From NCBI GenBank assembly GCA_947643225.1, contig CANRVH010000002.1, forward strand, positions 9,628-73,627: a DNA stretch of 64,000 nucleotides. Direction: 5' to 3'. This document shows positions 3,930-61,759 of this stretch, piece after piece (the stretch's first letter is position 1; each line of letters begins with the position of its first letter). The position numbers were made by a program, and so were the translations under genes. Origin of the DNA: an uncultured Clostridia bacterium. Its GTDB lineage: Bacteria > Bacillota_I > Bacilli_A > RF39 > UBA660. Under the pieces are notes generated by a model, which saw nothing but the letters and a program-made list of their open reading frames with translations, searched no databases and was not told the DNA's origin.

Positions 3930-4005
3930 GGGGCATTAGCTCAGCTGGGAGAGCGTCACGTTTGCACCGTGAAGGTCAGCGGTTCGATCCCGCTATGCTC
4001 CACCA
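3930..4005 (+). tRNA. tRNA-Ala (anticodon TGC)
   Basis: Cloverleaf folded by hand. Acceptor GGGGCAT/ATGCTCC; D arm GCTC..GAGC; anticodon stem TCACG/CGTGA with loop TTTGCAC; T arm GGTTCGATCC; encoded CCA. Confidence 0.9.
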
Positions 4006-4115
4006 GATTGATAGGAAACTCGAACTTTTCGAGTATTAAGTAAAACGACTTGTCAAAAAGTCGTTTTTATGATATTATGAATATGTCAAGGAAACTTGCA
4101 TAAAATAAAAAAGGG
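4006..4115 (+). repeat. tRNA-adjacent ~110-bp repeat module, copy A (hairpin ACTCGAA..TTCGAGT; terminator-like hairpin AAAACGACTtgtcaaaaAGTCGTTTTT; conserved core ATATGTCAAGGAAACTTGCATAAAATAAAAAAGG)
   Basis: Near-identical to 49627-49738 (after tRNA-Arg) and to the inverted copy at 51873-51988. Starts at the first base after the tRNA CCA. Confidence 0.8.
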
Positions 4116-4205
4116 GAATACTTAACGCTCCAATGTTGAGTACTCGCCACTAATTTGTGTAAGCACTTAATTTACTGAATGTAAATTGAGTGCTTTTCTC
4201 TTATT
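4103..4205 (+). ncRNA. putative small antisense RNA (candidate type I antitoxin) A; convergent with peptide gene 4214-4297
   Basis: TTGCAT -35-like in the module core. Ends in an intrinsic terminator (GCACTTAATTTACtgaatgTAAATTGAGTGC + TTTTCTC, 4165-4203). No ORF. Its 3' end abuts or overlaps the 3' end of the minus-strand peptide gene. Boundaries are approximate. Confidence 0.3.
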
Positions 4206-4213
4206 ATAGATTA

Positions 4214-4297
4214 CTACTTTACTAAAGTAAAAAGTAAGGCTATGAGTAAGATGATAATTAAAATAAGAGATGAGATTAAAAAATCTTTCTTATGCAT
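4214..4297 (-). CDS. 27-aa hydrophobic peptide MHKKDFLISSLILIIILLIALLFTLVK (candidate type I toxin, Fst/SprA1-like)
   Basis: Hand-translated minus-strand ORF with RBS AGGAGG 8 nt upstream of ATG. Paralogous to the peptide at 51710-51793 (MNKKDFLIFALVIIIFLLLLLLFITLI). Not in the ORF track because it is under 60 aa. Confidence 0.5.
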   Translation of the reverse strand: MHKKDFLISSLILIIILLIALLFTLVK

Positions 4298-4420
4298 ATC
4301 ATCAGCCTCCTTTCTTACGAAAGTTGGCAAGCATTCAACTGCTAATATATTCCCTAAGTAAATTATAGCAAGAGATTTGCTGTATAACAATATGATTGAC
4401 TAAATTTTGTCAATTTAATA

Positions 4421-4458
4421 AAAAACACGCTTGTATATTGCCAAATCAATATACATTA
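4421..4458 (+). promoter_or_regulatory. conserved promoter/operator motif copy 1 (AAACACgCTTGtATATTGcCAAATCAATATACATTA), upstream of the DUF1653 pseudogene
   Basis: One of four copies of a ~30-bp motif. It contains the dyad ATATTG-N6/7-CAATAT and lies between -35-like and -10-like hexamers. Confidence 0.45.
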
Positions 4459-4480: not shown

Positions 4481-4732
4481 ATGAATGAAATACAAGTAAA
4501 CAAGATTTATAAGCATTTTAAGGGGAAATTCATTAGAGTCGTATGTGTAGGACTTGATGCAGAAACAAAAAAAGAAATGGTAGCAATCGAAGAACTAGAG
4601 GAATCAGAAGGATATCCAAAAGGTCAAATATGATTTAGAGATAAAAGTGATTTTTTTAAAGAAGTTGATCATGAAAAATATCCAGATATAAAGCAAAAAT
4701 ACAGATTTGAGTTACAGGATGATATAAATTAG
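4481..4732 (+). pseudogene. DUF1653-family gene with in-frame TGA at the conserved Trp position
   Basis: Translates MNEIQVNKIYKHFKGKFIRV...GYPKGQI*FRDKSDFFKEV...KQKYRFELQDDIN. The stop aligns with W in the intact paralog at 8352-8576 (..NSPLWVRPYSLFLDEV..RFELQ). Good RBS. Confidence 0.6.
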
Positions 4733-4860
4733 TTGTTAAACGTCCTCTCTTATGGCACCCTATAGATAGGAAACTTGAACTTTTAATGTTTCGAGTTTTA
4801 ATATGCTTAAATTTATGATAAAATATCTATAGAAATCTAATTGATTTATGTCAATTTAGT

Positions 4861-4896
4861 AAACACACTTGCATATTGTCAAAATCAATATACATT
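4861..4896 (+). promoter_or_regulatory. conserved promoter/operator motif copy 2, upstream of the NUDIX gene
   Basis: AAACACACTTGCATATTGTCAAAATCAATATACATTA. The dyad ATATTG-N7-CAATAT ends ~16 nt before the GGAGG RBS. Confidence 0.45.
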
Positions 4897-4911
4897 ATTT
4901 GGAGGATAGTT

Positions 4912-5379
4912 ATGGAATATATAAAAATGATGCGAAAATATGTAGGACATTCGCCAATCATGATATGTGCTTGTGGATGTTTGATATTTAACGACAAAGG
5001 TCAAGTCTTGCTTCAGAAAAGATCTGATGATGGTTTATGGGGAAATCCAGGAGGTTCTATGGATTTAGGAGAAACTATATATGAAACCATTATTAGAGAA
5101 ATAAAAGAAGAAACAAATTTGCATATTAAAAAGGAAAATTTAAAAGTATTCAATATATATTCAGGAGAAGAACAACACCATATTTATCCTAATAAAGATG
5201 AAGTTTATTTTGTTAATATTATATTTGAAACTCACATTTACAATGGGGAAATAGTAAGCGATTTTGAGAGTTATGAATTAAAGTTTTTTGATCTTGATAA
5301 ATTACCATCTAATATCACTAAACCATTTGAGTCGGTGTCAAAAGATTTAAAAGAAAGAATACAAAATAGTGATATATAA
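4912..5379 (+). CDS. NUDIX hydrolase
   Basis: NUDIX box GGSMDLGETIYETIIREIKEETNL (GX5EX7REUXEEXGU). ATG at 4912 follows GGAGG; the track ORF at 4876 probably over-extends into the promoter. Confidence 0.75.
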   Translation: MEYIKMMRKYVGHSPIMICACGCLIFNDKGQVLLQKRSDDGLWGNPGGSMDLGETIYETIIREIKEETNLHIKKENLKVFNIYSGEEQHHIYPNKDEVYFVNIIFETHIYNGEIVSDFESYELKFFDLDKLPSNITKPFESVSKDLKERIQNSDI

Positions 5380-5625
5380 AATTTGTTGTACGTCCTCTCT
5401 TAGGACACCATAGGGAAATTAGCCGAACTAATTCGACTTTCAAAATATAAAGGTTAATTTTGGTTAATCTTGGTTAATCTTTTTTGTTAGTTTTGAAAGG
5501 AGTTTGATTAATTATGCAGACAGTAAAAGAAAAAATGAGTAAACCAAAGAAAAATATAATATTTGATTGCTAAATTATAATTAGGAAAATGATATAAAGT
5601 AGAAATTTATGGAAATGGTGGGAAT

Positions 5626-6177
5626 ATGACAATGATACAGGTAATAAAAAAAATAGATTCTTCCTTATTAGAAAATCAGTCTATAATGGAATATTTAAAA
5701 CAATTTAAAAAATACAAAATAGTAAATGAAGATATAGAAATAGACAATGGTGAAATAAATATATTATCCGAAAATGAGTTAATAAAAATAATATATATAA
5801 GGATTAGTGGGGGTAAATGGTGGAGTATATATAGATATCATTCAGATGGTACGAAATATGAACAGATAGATTCAATATTATTTGATGAAGTCAATGAAAA
5901 TGGATACAATAGAGTCATTAAATTTTCAGGACATATGGAAGATGATAATTATTCTTACATAACTTGTTCTTGTTTTTCGTATTTAGATAACGAGTTTATA
6001 AGAAGTTGGAAAAAAACTAGAGTAGTTCCTATACAAAATTTATATGAAATCCAATATTCTAAAGATATGAATTTAACAGAACTTATTTGTATGACTGATG
6101 CTATAAGTAATAATATTATAAGAAAAGAGGATCAAAAAGATACAAAAACATTAGTTTTAAAATTGGAAAAATTATAA
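5626..6177 (+). CDS. hypothetical protein (183 aa), islet cargo
   Basis: Clean ORF with RBS GGTGGGAAT. No recognisable motif. Confidence 0.4.
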   Translation: MTMIQVIKKIDSSLLENQSIMEYLKQFKKYKIVNEDIEIDNGEINILSENELIKIIYIRISGGKWWSIYRYHSDGTKYEQIDSILFDEVNENGYNRVIKFSGHMEDDNYSYITCSCFSYLDNEFIRSWKKTRVVPIQNLYEIQYSKDMNLTELICMTDAISNNIIRKEDQKDTKTLVLKLEKL

Positions 6178-6440
6178 TTATTAGGAATTGTTAATTAATT
6201 CTATTTCAAAAGTATAGTTAATTTTAAGTGATTTTTTATAAGTTCTTAAATGTCGTTATAACCTTTGTTTATAAGAGTTTACGACATTTTTATTTTTGGA
6301 AGATGTTCACATATATTTTTATAATTTCTTATATTTTTGCTTTCAAAAGTAGTAAATCAGTAGTAAAATAACTTAAAAATTTTACATGTACATCTTAAAA
6401 TAAAGCATTTTAATCAAAAACTAAACTTTTATAGGTAATA

Positions 6441-6629
6441 AATCTGCAATTGCATTAGATTATGTAGAAAATTTAGGGTATTTTATAGAAATAGAAGTTA
6501 AAAATTATGATGAGAGTGCTACGAACGAATATGATAAATTACTTAAACTAGCAAAAAAGTTAAGATTAAATTTAGATAACATTGATAAAAGAGGATATCC
6601 TTATCATCTTATTTATAATTCTAAATAAG
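6441..6629 (+). pseudogene. 3' fragment of an XRE-HTH::CYTH paralog (CYTH C-terminal remnant)
   Basis: Translates ..NKSAIALDYVENLGYFIEIEVKNYDESATNEYDKLLKLAKKLRLNLDNIDKRGYPYHLIYNSK*. About 90% identical to the C-terminus of the minus-strand gene 50733-51485. An upstream in-frame stop means only the last ~60 codons remain. Confidence 0.7.
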
Positions 6630-49549: not shown

Positions 49550-49626
49550 ATCCCCGTAGCTCACCTGGATAGAGCAAAAGTTTCCTAAACTTTAGGTAGT
49601 AGGTTCAAGTCCTATCGGGGATACCA
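49550..49626 (+). tRNA. tRNA-Arg (anticodon CCT)
   Basis: Hand-folded. Acceptor ATCCCCG/CGGGGAT; D arm GCTC..GAGC; anticodon stem AAAGT/ACTTT with loop TTCCTAA; T loop TTCAAGT; encoded CCA. Confidence 0.85.
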
Positions 49627-49738
49627 GATTGATAACAAACTCGAACTTTCGAGTAACAAGAGAAAGAACGACTTGTCAAAAAGTCGTTTTTATGTTACTA
49701 TGAATATGTCAAGGAAACTTGCATAAAATAAAAAAGGA
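49627..49738 (+). repeat. tRNA-adjacent ~110-bp repeat module, copy B
   Basis: GATTGATAacAAACTCGAACTTTCGAGTA...AACGACTTGTCAAAAAGTCGTTTTTATG..ATGAATATGTCAAGGAAACTTGCATAAAATAAAAAAGG. Same start position relative to the CCA as copy A. Confidence 0.8.
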
Positions 49739-49827
49739 TACATTTGATTGTGAGAATCAGATGTAATCCCTTGAAGGATAGCATCTGAAATCAACTAATG
49801 TTGAAATCAGATGCTTTGTCTATTTTA
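49725..49827 (+). ncRNA. putative small antisense RNA (candidate type I antitoxin) B
   Basis: No ORF. Terminator GCATCTGAAATCAA..TTGAAATCAGATGC + TTTGTCTATTTT (49781-49827) overlaps the stop of the minus-strand peptide gene. Contains GCATCTGA, complementary to ATCAGATGC in the peptide mRNA 5' UTR. Boundaries approximate. Confidence 0.3.
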
Positions 49828-49897
49828 GGAGTAAAATGATTACTACTAAAAATAGGAGTAATATTATAATAAACTGAAATAGTTCTCTTTTTGTCAT
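49820..49897 (-). CDS. 25-aa hydrophobic peptide MTKRELFQFIIILLLFLVVIILLLK (candidate type I toxin)
   Basis: Internal Met of track ORF 49820-50041, with RBS AAAGGTGGTGA. Charged N-terminus plus a single TM, like peptides A and C. Confidence 0.45.
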   Translation of the reverse strand: MTKRELFQFIIILLLFLVVIILLLK

Positions 49898-50034
49898 AAA
49901 TATCACCACCTTTCTTTTATCTTTGATAAATAGAAAGGGAAAGCATCTGATATTTTCAAACGTATCCATTAACATTATAGCAAACATTTGTTCTTCATAC
50001 AATAAATTTAATACTAAATGTTGTGATAATTTAG

Positions 50035-50060
50035 AAAACACACTTGCATATTGTCATAAT
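50035..50060 (+). promoter_or_regulatory. conserved promoter/operator motif copy 3 (AAAACACACTTGCATATTGTCATAAT), upstream of the MTase pseudogene
   Basis: Left half of the motif is conserved and the -10-like TGtCATAAT sits at the expected position. The right dyad arm is lost. Confidence 0.4.
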
Positions 50061-50102
50061 AAGCAAGATGCATTTGGGTATTAGTTAGAAGGGGAAATTT
50101 AT

Positions 50103-50669
50103 ATGACTTTTAAAGAAAAGGCTAAAAATTATGATAATGAATCAAGAGAAAAACGATCTCAAATCATTGCAGAAAAGATATTGAACATTGTTGGAGATAA
50201 ACAAAACTCTATGATGATGGAATATGGCTGTGCAACTGGATTAATATCGTTTCATTTATATGATAGATTTAAAAAATTAACTTTGATTGATTCTGAAGAG
50301 TAAATAATAAATATAGTAAGAAAAAAAGTTATTAATTATAATATATCTAATGTTATACCTATTAGAAAAGATTTAACAAAAGAAAAATATAATGTAGAAA
50401 AATTTGATGTTATTTTTACTTCATTGACACTTTATCACATAGTAGATGTAAAAAATATGATAAAGACATTTTATAGTATGTTAAATAAAGATGGTATATT
50501 AATTATAGATTTAGATAAAGAAGATGGTAGTTTTCATATGGATACAAAAGATTTTAGTGGTCATAATGGATTTGAACATAAATATATGGAAAATATATTA
50601 AAATCTGTTGGATTGTTTAATATTAAATCTGAAACATTTTTCAATAGCGAAAAGAAGATAAAAAAATAA
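50103..50669 (+). pseudogene. class I SAM-dependent methyltransferase interrupted by one in-frame TAA (50301-50303)
   Basis: Two track ORFs (50103-50303, 50424-50669) share one frame. Read through: motif I EYGCATG, post-I LIDSEE*, motif II FDVIFTS, motif III LNKDGILII. Confidence 0.6.
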
Positions 50670-50732
50670 AGTTATAATACCTCCTCTTTTAGGGTACCTT
50701 AAAGGATGACGTTCAACAACTTCCTTGTAATA

Positions 50733-51485
50733 CTATTTAGAACTATATATAAGATGATAAGGATATCCCCTTTTATCAATATTATCTAAATTTAGGTTTA
50801 AATCTTTAGCTAATTTAAGTAATTTATCATATTCGTTCATAGCGCTTTCATCATAATTTTTAACTTCTATTTCTATAAAATATCCTAAATTTTCTACATA
50901 ATCTAAGGCAATTTCATATTTATTTAAGTAAAAATATGTATCCCTTACTTTATTAACTATTGCGATTTCTTCCATTCCTAGAATTTTAAAAATTTTATCT
51001 AAATTAACTTCATTATCTATTTCAACTTCATATTCATCACAATACATATTGTTGTACCAATTTTTGTAATTTAGTATTTTTTTATTACCTCTTATTCCTA
51101 TTCTAAGCCATTCGTTTATCATTTTTTTACCATCATTTAGAAACCTTCTATGAGTCGGTTGATAATATGCATCAACTTGTTTACTCTCATTTAAAAATTT
51201 AGCATTATTTTTCATAAAAATTTCAATTTTATGAAATTCATTTTTTGAAAGTTTTATTTTTACCTCTGTTTCTATATCATTTTTCTTTGTATTTCCATGA
51301 ATTAAGTAACTAGCATTACAATTAAATAACTCGCTTAATTTAATTATAGTTTCTAAACTGGGTTCTGTTCTATTAGATTCCCAACTTGAAATTGTTTTAT
51401 CAGTTACAAAAATTTTATTTGCCAAATCATTTTGGGTCCATTTTTTATTTTTTCTCAAATCTGCTATTCGATTTCCTAAATTCAT
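50733..51485 (-). CDS. XRE-family HTH fused to CYTH domain (CyaB-like class IV adenylyl cyclase/triphosphate tunnel fold)
   Basis: N-terminal HTH (RIADLRKNKKWTQNDLANKIFVTDKTISSWESNRTEPSLETIIKLSELFN). CYTH motifs ETEVKIKL, VDAYYQPT, WLRIGIRGNKKILNYK, EYEVEID, RDTYFYL, LDYVENLGYFIEIEV. Start assigned to the internal ATG at 51485 (RBS GGTGA); the track ORF extends to 51632 across its own promoter. Confidence 0.65.
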   Translation of the reverse strand: MNLGNRIADLRKNKKWTQNDLANKIFVTDKTISSWESNRTEPSLETIIKLSELFNCNASYLIHGNTKKNDIETEVKIKLSKNEFHKIEIFMKNNAKFLNESKQVDAYYQPTHRRFLNDGKKMINEWLRIGIRGNKKILNYKNWYNNMYCDEYEVEIDNEVNLDKIFKILGMEEIAIVNKVRDTYFYLNKYEIALDYVENLGYFIEIEVKNYDESAMNEYDKLLKLAKDLNLNLDNIDKRGYPYHLIYSSK

Positions 51486-51550
51486 TTTTATCACCAAATT
51501 AATTGTATCATAATACAACATGTTATATGCTCTACATTTTGTAGAATGAT

Positions 51551-51587
51551 AGTCGTTATTTGATTTTGTCAAATTGCAAGTGTGTTT
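51551..51587 (-). promoter_or_regulatory. conserved promoter/operator motif copy 4 (AAAACACACTTGCAATTTGACAAAATCAAATAACGAC), upstream of the HTH-CYTH gene
   Basis: Dyad ATTTG-N7-CAAAT; TATCAT -10-like just downstream. Candidate autoregulatory site. Confidence 0.45.
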
Positions 51588-51709
51588 TCTATATTGAAAA
51601 AATTTAATATAAAACCGCCGATTTAAGAACAAATGTTTACTATAATAAATTTAGGAACGCTTAATAAGTTGGGTGGAGCCAAACTTCATAAAAGAAGGGA
51701 GGCGATATA

Positions 51710-51793
51710 ATGAACAAGAAAGATTTCTTAATCTTTGCTCTAGTAATTATTATCTTCCTTTTACTATTATTGTTATTTATAACTTTAATATAA
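51710..51793 (+). CDS. 27-aa hydrophobic peptide MNKKDFLIFALVIIIFLLLLLLFITLI (candidate type I toxin, paralog of peptide A)
   Basis: RBS AAGGGAGG. TATAAT -10 at 51643-51648. The 3' end abuts the hairpin TCCACCTAA..TTAGGTGGA. Confidence 0.5.
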   Translation: MNKKDFLIFALVIIIFLLLLLLFITLI

Positions 51794-51885
51794 AAGAAAT
51801 CCACCTAACTCTAGCATAGATTTAGGTGGAACCAAATACATGGTGACACTCAACACTGCAATATTGAATGTTCCTTTTATTTTAT
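51787..51885 (-). ncRNA. putative small antisense RNA (candidate type I antitoxin) C
   Basis: Minus-strand terminator TCCACCTAAatctatgctagagTTAGGTGGA + TTTCTTTTAT. The segment TTTGGTTCCACCTAAA can pair with 15 contiguous nt (2 G-U) of the peptide mRNA 5' UTR (TTGGGTGGAGCCAAA). Its 5' part (CAGTGTTGAGTGTC) is homologous to sRNA A (CAATGTTGAGTACTC). Confidence 0.35.
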
Positions 51886-51988
51886 GCAAGTTTCCTTGAC
51901 ATATTGACCATAACATAAAAACGCACCTTTATCAAGTACGTTTTTTAATTACTACTCGAACTCTCACTATTTTATGTATTCGAGTTTT
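51873..51988 (-). repeat. repeat module, copy C (inverted orientation, no adjacent tRNA)
   Basis: Reverse complement carries ACTCGAA..TTCGAGT, then AAAAAACGTAC..GTGCGTTTTTATG and the identical core ATATGTCAAGGAAACTTGCATAAAATAAAAGG. Confidence 0.75.
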
Positions 51989-52088: not shown

Positions 52089-52433
52089 ATGAAAATTTAT
52101 AGGGATATACCTCTTTTTTTAAGAAAAAGAGGAGGTCACGAATTTAATAGTTTAGCAGACGATCTATCTGAAGAAGGAAAATATTTCTATTTATTTGCTG
52201 AAGATGCAATTATACAGGGAAATGATTTACTTGGAAAGTATCATAGATTAACAATAGATACCTTTCTAGTTGTCGAATATGACATTCCAAAAGAAATAAT
52301 TTTAAAAAACATTGGATATGGTGATTATACTGAAGGAATTAATCCCTTATATTTAATAGAATCGTATATTGAAAGGAGTGACTTAGGTAACAAAAAAACA
52401 ACCACATATGAAATACCTGACGAAAAGAATTAA
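52089..52433 (+). CDS. hypothetical protein (114 aa)
   Basis: Clean ORF with RBS GGGGGAGG; no motif. Confidence 0.4.
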   Translation: MKIYRDIPLFLRKRGGHEFNSLADDLSEEGKYFYLFAEDAIIQGNDLLGKYHRLTIDTFLVVEYDIPKEIILKNIGYGDYTEGINPLYLIESYIERSDLGNKKTTTYEIPDEKN

Positions 52434-52498
52434 AGATTTTAAGTCAATCTTTAAAAGATTCTTTAAAATTAACACAGGAATATATAAGTTTATCTGAT

Positions 52499-52846
52499 AT
52501 GTTTTTTTATCTTGATTGCTTTGACACTCATGATTTAAAATCAATAATAGATAATGAAGAAAAAATTCAAAATACAATTATAGATAGCCCATTTTATCAA
52601 AGTTTTATGAATGAAAATGGAGAGCTAATTGAATCACCTTACATTACTGGAAAAATAATACCAGTCAACATGAATTTTATGTCTCACAAATTAAAAAATG
52701 ATGATGAAATTACTAAGTATTATCAAAGCAAAGGAATAAATTGTGATTTTTCTAAAGAACAACAAGAATATAAAGATGAATTATTATATTTTATAAAGAA
52801 ACAAGAAAAAGTAAAAGTAAAAAGTTTGTTAGAAAAGAAAAAATAA
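52499..52846 (+). CDS. hypothetical protein (115 aa)
   Basis: ORF after 52089-52433 on the same strand; no motif. Confidence 0.35.
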   Translation: MFFYLDCFDTHDLKSIIDNEEKIQNTIIDSPFYQSFMNENGELIESPYITGKIIPVNMNFMSHKLKNDDEITKYYQSKGINCDFSKEQQEYKDELLYFIKKQEKVKVKSLLEKKK

Positions 52847-61150: not shown

Positions 61151-61759
61151 ATGAATTTAGGAGAAAAACTATATCAACTTAGAAAAGCTAAAAATTTATC
61201 ACAAGAAGAGACAGCCGAAAAATTAAATGTTACAAGACAGACAATTTCAAAATGGGAAACGAATCAAAGCACACCAGATTTTGATAAAATTCTTCCCTTA
61301 TGCAAATTATATGAAATTTCAACAGATGAATTATTAACAGATCAAATAATTGAAAAAGACAGAATTATGGAACCAAATAACCAGAATGAAGAAAAAATAA
61401 AAAGAGCAAGAGCAGTAAGTACAAGTGTTTTTTTGTATTTCATTTCAATAATTTGGATTATCATAGCAGAATCAATAGAAGAAATAACTGAAAATCTCTT
61501 AGTAGGAATTTTTATGTTCATATGTGCCATTGCAACAGTTAATTTAATTTATCAATTTATGAGTACTTCTAATAAAATTAATCAGAAATCTAAAAAAAAA
61601 TATAAAGATATAGATAGTATAATAGCAATAACTTTTTTCCTTATCTATATGATAATAAGTTTTATAACTATGGCATGGTATATTACTTGGTTAATTTGGA
61701 TCGTATATTTATTAGTAACAAAAATTATTCACTTAATACTAGAACTAAGGGAGAAGTAA
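61151..61759 (+). CDS. XRE-family HTH protein with C-terminal transmembrane segments
   Basis: HTH LYQLRKAKNLSQEETAEKLNVTRQTISKWE, then 3-4 TM. Confidence 0.7.
   Translation: MNLGEKLYQLRKAKNLSQEETAEKLNVTRQTISKWETNQSTPDFDKILPLCKLYEISTDELLTDQIIEKDRIMEPNNQNEEKIKRARAVSTSVFLYFISIIWIIIAESIEEITENLLVGIFMFICAIATVNLIYQFMSTSNKINQKSKKKYKDIDSIIAITFFLIYMIISFITMAWYITWLIWIVYLLVTKIIHLILELREK

Follow-up and report, generated by a model that had tools for sequence, protein, structure and literature searches.

A predicted autoregulated helix-turn-helix regulator with a CYTH triphosphate tunnel in uncultured gut Bacilli

What does a DNA-binding domain do on a protein whose other half resembles a tunnel for triphosphates? 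The question is raised by one gene in a 64,000-nucleotide stretch of DNA from an uncultured Clostridia bacterium (contig CANRVH010000002.1 of assembly GCA_947643225.1), which we analysed as a whole and call the window. The gene encodes an XRE-type helix-turn-helix (HTH) domain fused to a CYTH domain, and we refer to it as the HTH-CYTH gene. CYTH proteins, or triphosphate tunnel metalloenzymes (TTMs), are found in all domains of life, and little is known of what they do in the cell and of their true substrates (PMC8233210). A first-pass annotation, made from the sequence alone, had proposed either ligand-sensing regulation through the triphosphate-binding tunnel or a regulator that makes or degrades a signalling nucleotide. 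On balance, we favour the view that the HTH-CYTH protein is a stand-alone, autoregulated XRE-TTM one-component regulator, whose tunnel would sense, and here probably hydrolyse, a triphosphate ligand.

Domain architecture and spread of the fusion

The HTH-CYTH protein begins with MNLGNRIADLRK. A longer open reading frame (ORF) of 299 amino acids (aa) starting at TTG was rejected, since the orthologues begin with MNLG and the conserved operator and −10 element described below fall inside the extension. The first-pass annotation was right about the fusion, as Pfam finds both domains far above the curated cut-offs. HTH_3 was matched by aa 7-61 (E 2.7e-15; 56.6 bits vs a cut-off of 23), and CYTH (PF01928) by aa 71-241 (E 1.2e-18; 68 bits vs 23.2), the latter over positions 2-179 of the 179 in the profile. 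The linker between the two domains is very short, about 6-8 residues (aa 64-71). In the family profile search the nearest relatives of the HTH were the N-terminal domain of the P22 C2 repressor (E 1e-11) and ICEBs1 ImmR.

An AlphaFold2 model built from 80 orthologues (mean predicted local distance difference test, pLDDT, 89; predicted TM-score, pTM, 0.78) consists of five helices (residues 3-13, 18-25, 29-36, 44-54 and 58-63) followed by a beta-barrel of eight strands and a terminal helix (241-247). The linker lies between helix 58-63 and strand 74-79 and has a pLDDT of 68. In a Foldseek search against the PDB, the barrel was placed best on SaTTM (Saci_0718, PDB 7NS8-7NSF), PH1819 (2EEN), PH1012 (2DC4) and Pfu-838710 (1YEM), with E of about 1e-12 and target-normalised TM-scores of 0.77-0.80. 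The same archaeal proteins were the best sequence matches, and the family profile found SaTTM (7ns8) with E 1.2e-20. Lower-scoring fold matches were class IV cyclases, Bacillus CYTH proteins and thiamine triphosphatases (ThTPases). The profile check proposed for the C-terminal domain thus gave CYTH over the full Pfam profile and a barrel that folds like the TTMs. No solved chain with both an HTH and a CYTH domain was found by PDB sequence and Foldseek searches, and no exact copy of the window's protein is on record.

Next, we considered how far the fusion is spread. The first-pass annotation had suggested an architecture search and named orthologues lacking the HTH, together with substitution of all catalytic and ligand residues, as an outcome that would speak against its reading. 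A search of 5.8 billion proteins gave 581 matches, and among the 120 matches listed (66-95% identity) all 120 carry both Pfam domains. An exhaustive HMMER search of 1.84 billion representatives, clustered at 50% identity, extended the family by at least 15 full-length fused clusters with identities of 33-55%. CYTH proteins that stand alone come no closer than about 45% identity. The genome matches are all metagenome-assembled genomes (MAGs), labelled as uncultured Erysipelotrichaceae, Bacilli, Tenericutes, Clostridia, Muribaculaceae or uncultured bacterium. The full architecture was found in none of 50,697 phage records, IMG/VR or 72,556 plasmids (PLSDB). The only name from any source, 'predicted adenylyl cyclase CyaB', is attached to a relative with 75% identity. 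In the searchable literature, whose coverage does not extend to the founding CYTH paper (Iyer and Aravind 2002), we found no paper that describes this architecture or a sensor role of CYTH/TTM proteins.

The fusion had been called unusual. It is indeed uncharacterised, but it is common in gut metagenomes, and it is best described as an uncharacterised yet widespread variant of a known design principle. BirA, NadR and NrtR are enzyme-derived one-component regulators of this kind, in which a DNA-binding domain is fused to an enzyme fold that reads a small molecule. XRE-cupin regulators such as PsdR follow the same logic of a DNA-binding domain plus an enzyme fold (PMC7901475, PMC10965056). The sensor folds and ligands of all these regulators differ from those of the HTH-CYTH protein.

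Predicted operator, promoter and gene neighbourhood

When the upstream regions were aligned by eye, we first noticed a perfect 15-bp palindrome, TCTACA-N3-TGTAGA, which is the predicted operator. The palindrome precedes every orthologue, even where the remaining upstream DNA is unrelated. It is perfect and occurs once per locus, 46-64 nt 5' of the start codon, in 23 of 28 loci and has a single mismatch in the other five. Altogether, it was present at a fixed geometry in 42/42 distinct loci. The site in front of the HTH-CYTH gene is the single perfect one within the window.

An extended −10 element, TGnTAnAAT, stands exactly 20 nt 3' of the palindrome. It was found at this distance in all 22 loci that had been located by protein similarity, independently of the geometry. 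The sequence of the 20-nt spacer is not conserved, and no −35 hexamer could be recognised in the 22 loci. The −10 element ends 15-21 nt before the start codon and the 5' untranslated region of the window's gene would be only about 9-14 nt long. In standard numbering the palindrome spans about −50 to −36, with its centre at about −43. A scan for consensus promoters was uninformative in DNA of 25% GC (27 sites vs 21 expected).

The simplest reading of the operator is autoregulation by the protein's own HTH. The N-terminal domain of P22 C2, ICEBs1 ImmR and SinR likewise combine a five-helix HTH with a short palindromic operator at their own promoter, as predicted here. The C-terminal part is different, since the HTH-CYTH protein has a CYTH barrel where the XRE/Cro-C1 repressors have an S24 peptidase, a SinR-type oligomerisation domain or a metalloprotease partner. 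Lambda CI at PRM is a class-II activator, and the position of the HTH-CYTH operator matches such sites. From the position, activation of the class-II type and repression would be equally possible.

To a lesser extent, the same promoter arrangement is found elsewhere. A metagenome scan for operator-N20-TGnTAnAAT gave 39 matches. On low-GC contigs, 20 of them precede an HTH-CYTH gene, which was recognised by the downstream ORF in 19 (down to 32% identity) and by tblastn in contig L051. In L041 (2578-3490, minus strand) and L067 the same operator-N20-extended −10 drives an operon without an HTH-CYTH gene. This operon encodes a GFO_IDH_MocA oxidoreductase, an AAA_18 kinase-like protein, a MiaB-like radical SAM (S-adenosylmethionine) enzyme and a nucleotidyltransferase, and its promoter makes it a candidate regulon member. 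L048 (23-66, plus strand) has nearly the same promoter as the HTH-CYTH gene of L055. The 192-aa ORF behind this promoter is unrelated, and contig L048 yielded no HTH-CYTH homologue. The match in L044, a short contig of marine origin (TARA) where no ORF follows, is probably due to chance. Additional operator-like sites in the window are at chance level (3 observed vs 3.85 expected at up to 2 mismatches).

No constant neighbour accompanies the gene. All-against-all ORF clustering of 18 genome loci and the window found no shared neighbour gene. A conserved partner (toxin, enzyme or transporter) was rejected on the basis of this clustering in 19 loci and of four Pfam-annotated context sets. XRE-class type II antitoxins (HipB, HigA, MqsA-like) would be expected beside a toxin, and no conserved adjoining toxin was found in the 19 loci or the annotated contexts. 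In one context, Bro-N and DUF4177 are on one side and DapF and GatCAB on the other. In others, the gene lies between Abi_2 with HtrA and YefM-YoeB with DUF2357, between SmpB with the transfer-messenger RNA (tmRNA) and ThyX, and between FtsY with DUF87 and DUF4026. Since there are no shared neighbours and the Pfam contexts differ, the HTH-CYTH gene is a solo unit. Its position within a species is stable, with a common context in 16/24 contigs of P0079 and 10/23 of P0034.

Tunnel residues, sensing and rival explanations

Tunnel residues were mapped by HMMER alignments to SaTTM, and the roles of the SaTTM residues were taken from PMC8233210. Every CYTH signature block named by the first-pass annotation is present: E72-T-E74-V-K76, D105-x-Y107, W126-L-R128-I-G130-I-R132, K141, E151/E153/E155, K179/R181, D195 and E205-I-E207. 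Most of the tunnel residues are invariant in the 80 orthologues, and E74, K76 and D105 are conserved in at least 90% of them. The ExExK motif in the first strand of SaTTM (E5/E7/K9) corresponds to E72/E74/K76, its DxY motif to D105/Y107, and the ExE motif of its last strand (E135/E137) to E205/E207. Further on, A54 corresponds to W126, R56 to R128, K69 to K141 and K110/R112 to K179/R181. The position of the second arginine, R58 in SaTTM, is taken by Gly130, with R132 two positions on; relatives have S-x-R-x-R or R-x-R. The predicted metal ligands are E72, E74, E205 and E207, and the predicted phosphate-binding residues are K76, R128, K141, K179 and R181, so that the tunnel residues whose retention was to be checked are kept. 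In TTMs, the ExE motif provides ligands of metal 1 and metal 2, and the xRxR arginines bind the beta and gamma phosphates (PMC8233210).

Vogt et al. 2021 (PMC8233210) recognise true class IV cyclases by HFxxxxExExK, a last-strand ExA and a small residue replacing the first arginine of xRxR, and ThTPases by W/YxRxR; the remaining members are triphosphatases. In the HTH-CYTH protein the HF motif is absent from its place four residues before ExExK, where the protein reads T66-K67-K-N-D-I-E72. The last-strand motif is ExE, not ExA, and its E207 is invariant in close orthologues. The gate-keeper first arginine is kept as R128, which is invariant in the 80 close orthologues. All three published cyclase features are thus absent, and the class IV cyclase reading is very unlikely. 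By these motifs, the predicted CYTH domain is a triphosphatase-type tunnel with SaTTM as its nearest relative and not a class IV adenylate cyclase. The profile TIGR00318 of NCBIfam (class IV adenylate cyclase, cyaB) was passed marginally, with 61.5 vs 57.95 bits (+3.5). This pass and the name 'predicted adenylyl cyclase CyaB' are probably over-annotations. Archaeal CYTH proteins such as SaTTM, a proven non-cyclase, likewise carried an adenylyl cyclase annotation. This means that, of the proposal that the protein makes or degrades a signalling nucleotide, the making of cyclic AMP (cAMP) falls on all three discriminators, while the protein may degrade a triphosphate compound.

SaTTM, PH1819 and the P. 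furiosus protein belong to 'cluster 3' of Vogt et al. 2021, and ThTPase belongs to cluster 8, separate from them (PMC8233210). The HTH-CYTH protein shares ExExK, DxY, the Lys/Arg phosphate clamp and the two-metal ExE site with the archaeal-type TTMs. However, the latter are single-domain enzymes of about 180 aa without a DNA-binding domain, and they are only 27-30% identical to it. Trp126, which is invariant in the family, and glycine at the second arginine position are two lineage-specific features; SaTTM has alanine and arginine instead. The class IV CyaB of Yersinia pestis (2FJT/3N0Y) belongs to the same superfamily and has the same fold, but it is a weaker fold match. Mammalian ThTPases (mouse 5A64, human 3BHD) have ExE and, like Trp126, an aromatic residue at the first position of W/YxRxR, a correspondence that is indirect since it runs through SaTTM A54, which equals mouse W53. 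The second arginine of this motif is absent here, as the mammalian enzymes read WxRxR and the HTH-CYTH protein reads WxRxGxR, and the two are far apart (TM-score about 0.5, 13-16% identity).

Whether the tunnel acts as a sensor or as an enzyme can be judged from the distant fused proteins. All 15 distant fused clusters share Y107, K141, K179, R181, D195 and E205. Four of them carry substitutions at the metal-2 and water-activating ligands, and all four have kept the HTH. Residues 72/74/76 and 205/207 are K/E/R and E/S in P0127, K/E/K and E/K in P0138, E/E/K and E/K in P0155, and E/S/K and E/K in P0205. Since the binding residues are kept and catalytic ones are lost in some fused lineages, the fusion appears to be selected for ligand binding. 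The Nudix domain of NrtR has lost catalysis, and some fused CYTH lineages appear alike. In the window's own lineage the two-metal triphosphatase set is intact, and catalysis is probably retained. The suggestion of ligand sensing through the triphosphate tunnel is thereby supported, both by the conserved autoregulatory operator and by fused lineages that lost catalysis and kept binding.

We propose the following mechanism. A dimer of the protein would bind the palindrome centred at about −43 and would control its own promoter. The CYTH tunnel would bind a triphosphate-bearing ligand with Mg2+, and in the window's lineage it probably hydrolyses this ligand. SaTTM is a homodimer with ligand-driven tunnel closure, and its N terminus (M1-E5) is disordered when the tunnel is open and ordered when it is closed on the ligand (PMC8233210). 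The equivalent segment in the HTH-CYTH protein is the short, conserved linker. The open-to-closed transition would order this linker, which stands before ExExK, reposition both HTH domains and change the occupancy of the operator. By analogy with SaTTM, the linker would couple the occupancy of the tunnel directly and mechanically to the geometry of the HTH. Since the invariant Trp126 is at the position that stacks on the thiazole in ThTPases and the C-terminal plug (G-Y-P-Y-H) is aromatic, the sequence suggests an organic triphosphate, either a nucleoside triphosphate (NTP) or thiamine triphosphate, rather than bare tripolyphosphate (PPPi).

A stronger version of this idea, which we offer only tentatively, is that the protein is the first transcription factor built on a TTM, in which ligand binding and slow hydrolysis cycle the tunnel and move the HTH on and off the −43 site. 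If true, this would be a self-resetting, enzyme-timed autoregulation reporting PPPi, NTP or thiamine triphosphate in reduced-genome gut Bacilli, and it would answer the long-standing question of what the archaeal-type CYTH clade binds physiologically. With a CYTH domain wired to an HTH that has a defined 15-bp operator, the ligand of the tunnel in vivo could be read from operator binding or reporter output. The one-component reading would also add a new sensor fold to the bacterial one-component regulators, in uncultured gut Bacilli in which almost no regulation is understood. Moreover, an annotation error is corrected, since such proteins are currently named CyaB adenylate cyclases and should not carry a cyclase annotation.

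Several points weigh against an autoregulated sensor. DNA binding, ligand binding and hydrolysis are all inferred, and the dimer and the allosteric route are argued from SaTTM. Neither the window nor the gene-carrying loci yielded a second perfect operator, and a regulator that targets itself alone would be odd. The promoters of the same geometry in L041/L067 and L048 drive other genes and may be either regulon members or remnants. The second arginine of SaTTM, R58, is Gly130 here, and R132 may or may not compensate for it. Finally, about 5 of the 42 operator-linked copies are truncated or frameshifted, and this suits a dispensable accessory gene more than a core regulator; chimeric derivatives exist as well.

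The last point leads to the question of mobility. The gene could belong to a small integrative mobile element or prophage at the 3' flanks of transfer RNA (tRNA) or tmRNA genes, either as its immunity repressor or as what is left of it, with the CYTH domain as an induction sensor; we regard this as unlikely. Its HTH is nearest to the P22 C2 and ICEBs1 ImmR repressor domains. In 9 of about 42 distinct loci, a tRNA or tmRNA gene on the same strand is found no more than about 1.1 kb upstream, compared with a rough chance expectation of 2-3%. The identity of this RNA varies by locus (Lys, Thr-cgt, Thr-ggt, Met, Glu, Gly, Trp and, twice, tmRNA), and in the window a relic copy is found behind tRNA-Ala. 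Direct repeats of a tRNA-3'-end-like module with the GATTGATA hairpin enclose the gene in L014 and L017/L051, in L019 the Bro-N and DUF4177 genes are divergent from it, and truncated and chimeric copies are frequent. However, no integrase, recombinase, Cro-like partner or phage gene consistently adjoins it in the annotated contexts, and its position within species is stable. No full-length match was found in the phage records, IMG/VR or the plasmids, and the C-terminal domain is a CYTH domain, so that the protein does not fall with the phage CI/C2-type repressors. The repeated module also precedes unrelated genes and is not specific to this one. It is our inference that the HTH-CYTH gene is accessory cargo of tRNA-flank islets, which are reshuffled by recombination between the repeated modules.

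We give a similarly low probability to a single-gene stress or anti-phage effector, in which the HTH autorepresses and the CYTH domain, once de-repressed, depletes an essential triphosphate (NTP, deoxy-NTP or thiamine triphosphate). The position in variable islets by tRNAs, the frequent pseudogenisation and the intact catalytic residues in the window's lineage would fit this, and one locus is like a defence island (Abi_2, YefM/YoeB, Peptidase_S24, DUF2357). Jumbo phages have been reported to carry CYTH triphosphatases that are thought to act on nucleotide pools (PMC7824862). Nevertheless, the PADLOC and PHROGs matches are confined to the HTH portion; in PADLOC-DB 2.0, all 19 matches are restricted to the N-terminal ~100 residues and stop short of the CYTH core. 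The contexts are mostly housekeeping junctions, and an identity of 66-95% over many MAGs is unusually high for a defence gene. Several fused lineages without the catalytic glutamates keep the fusion, which is unexpected for a protein that acts by hydrolysis.

A DNA-tethered class IV adenylate or nucleotidyl cyclase, producing cAMP or another cyclic nucleotide under control of the HTH, is hardly credible, because the TIGR00318 score, the CyaB name of the 75%-identity relative and the Yersinia class IV cyclases among the fold matches are opposed by the missing HF motif, by ExE in place of ExA, by R128 in place of a small residue, by a far better match to SaTTM/PH1819 than to the class IV cyclases (E 1e-20 vs 7e-5; target-normalised TM-score 0.8 vs 0.65) and by the finding that SaTTM, the tested member of this cluster, is no cyclase.

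Relic copy, repeated module and other features of the window

Table 1. Positions of the HTH-CYTH gene, its predicted control elements and other features in the window.
Feature	Position	Strand	Details and evidence
HTH-CYTH coding sequence	50733-51485	-	ATG at 51485, TAA at 50733-50735, 250 aa plus stop; ORF listing, translation, full-length orthologues (66-95% identity)
XRE/Cro-C1 HTH domain, aa 1-65	51291-51485	-	Pfam HTH_3 (PF01381) and HTH_19; five helices in the model
CYTH/TTM domain, aa 71-241	50763-51275	-	Pfam CYTH, family profile, Foldseek
Shine-Dalgarno sequence GGTGAT	51490-51495	-	4 nt before ATG; conserved across orthologous loci
Extended −10, TGATACAAT	51502-51510	-	match to TGnTAnAAT at the conserved distance
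Predicted operator, 15-bp palindrome	51531-51545	n/a	sequence conservation
Module copy upstream of the HTH-CYTH gene, inverted	51560-51984	-	hairpin, terminator, small ORF, promoter box; self-blastn
Module copy 3' of tRNA-Ala	4002-4449	+	part 4028-4449 (+): blastn to 51960-51560, 68%
Further module copy	49623-50100	+	
Small ORF in module copy	4214-4297	-	
Small ORF in module copy	49820-49897	-	
Small ORF in module copy	51710-51793	+	
Promoter box	4405-4458		
Promoter box	4846-4897		
Truncated relic of a second HTH-CYTH gene	6437-6628	+	last 64-66 codons plus stop, in the tRNA-Ala islet; tblastn, blastn
Islet genes behind tRNA-Ala	4481-6177	+	the three rows below
DUF1653 fragment	4481-4633	+	
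NUDIX hydrolase	4876-5379	+	
183-aa ORF	5626-6177	+	no family match
SAM-methyltransferase-like gene	50103-50669	+	split into 66-aa and 81-aa ORFs; weak Methyltransf_23 match; probable pseudogene
tRNA-3'-end-like motif CCTCCTCTTTTAGGGTACC	50680-50698		
Adjoining 114-aa and 115-aa ORFs	52089-52846	+	no Pfam match; between the inverted module and the ABC transporter gene
Second XRE-type HTH protein	61151-61759	+	202 aa

The window contains the remains of a second HTH-CYTH gene. The first-pass annotation had reported a decayed copy of the CYTH 3' end at 6441-6629, and the copy is real, but it is truncated rather than heavily decayed. By tblastn it covers 6428-6625 (+) with 58/66 identical residues (E 8e-23), and by blastn 6437-6627 aligns to 50924-50734 with 90.6% identity. 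The relic can be read in frame without meeting an internal stop; a start codon is missing, and a stop codon stands immediately upstream. The similarity extends from codon ~185 to the stop codon and no further. Islet genes replace the promoter and the first ~184 codons of this copy. Because the DNA behind tRNA-Ala (4028-4449) is homologous to the region upstream of the intact gene, the relic once had a tRNA - module - gene layout.

The repeated module is about 480 nt long, begins at tRNA 3' ends and is present in three copies, of which two follow tRNA-Ala and tRNA-Arg and the one upstream of the HTH-CYTH gene is inverted. It consists of CCA-GATTGATA, a hairpin ACTCGAAC..TTCGAGT, a bidirectional terminator CGACTTGTCAAAAAGTCG-T5, an antisense small ORF and a promoter box TAGAAAACACACTTGCATATTGTCATAAT, which leads into variable genes. 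The same module precedes unrelated genes (the methyltransferase pseudogene, DUF1653 and Nudix), which shows that it has no specific tie to the HTH-CYTH gene. In L008, L011, L013, L014, L016 and L017 the module hairpin follows tRNAs of other identities. Neither the module nor its small peptides had a significant Rfam or Pfam match.

The small ORFs inside the module copies are paralogous and 25-27 aa long, and each has a near-consensus promoter, TTGTAT-N17-TATAAT. In the peptides, a short charged N-terminal part precedes about 20 hydrophobic residues, e.g. MNKKDFLIFALVIIIFLLLLLLFITLI, and they resemble type I toxin peptides. The 27-aa hydrophobic peptide encoded divergently upstream of the HTH-CYTH gene (51710-51793) was rejected as a specific partner of the HTH-CYTH protein, since it was found only in the closest relatives L016 and L017/L051 and the module precedes unrelated genes.

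The tRNA-3'-end-like motif CCTCCTCTTTTAGGGTACC was also found in L014 (6771-6816), L017 (6770-6817) and L051 (3281-3328). In L014 and L017/L051 it stands just 3' of the HTH-CYTH gene and is continued by a second GATTGATA-hairpin module, which leaves the gene flanked by direct repeats. The window copy follows the methyltransferase pseudogene instead. This pseudogene is driven by the module after tRNA-Arg and is convergent with the HTH-CYTH gene. In L051, an IS1595-type transposase lies ~1.3 kb downstream. Deleted, chimeric or frameshifted derivatives of the gene are represented by proteins P0133, P0142, P0193 and P0203 and by loci L016, L017/L051, L045, L046 and L060. The second XRE-type HTH protein of the window has 36% identity to the HTH of the HTH-CYTH protein over 70 residues and a different C-terminal part.

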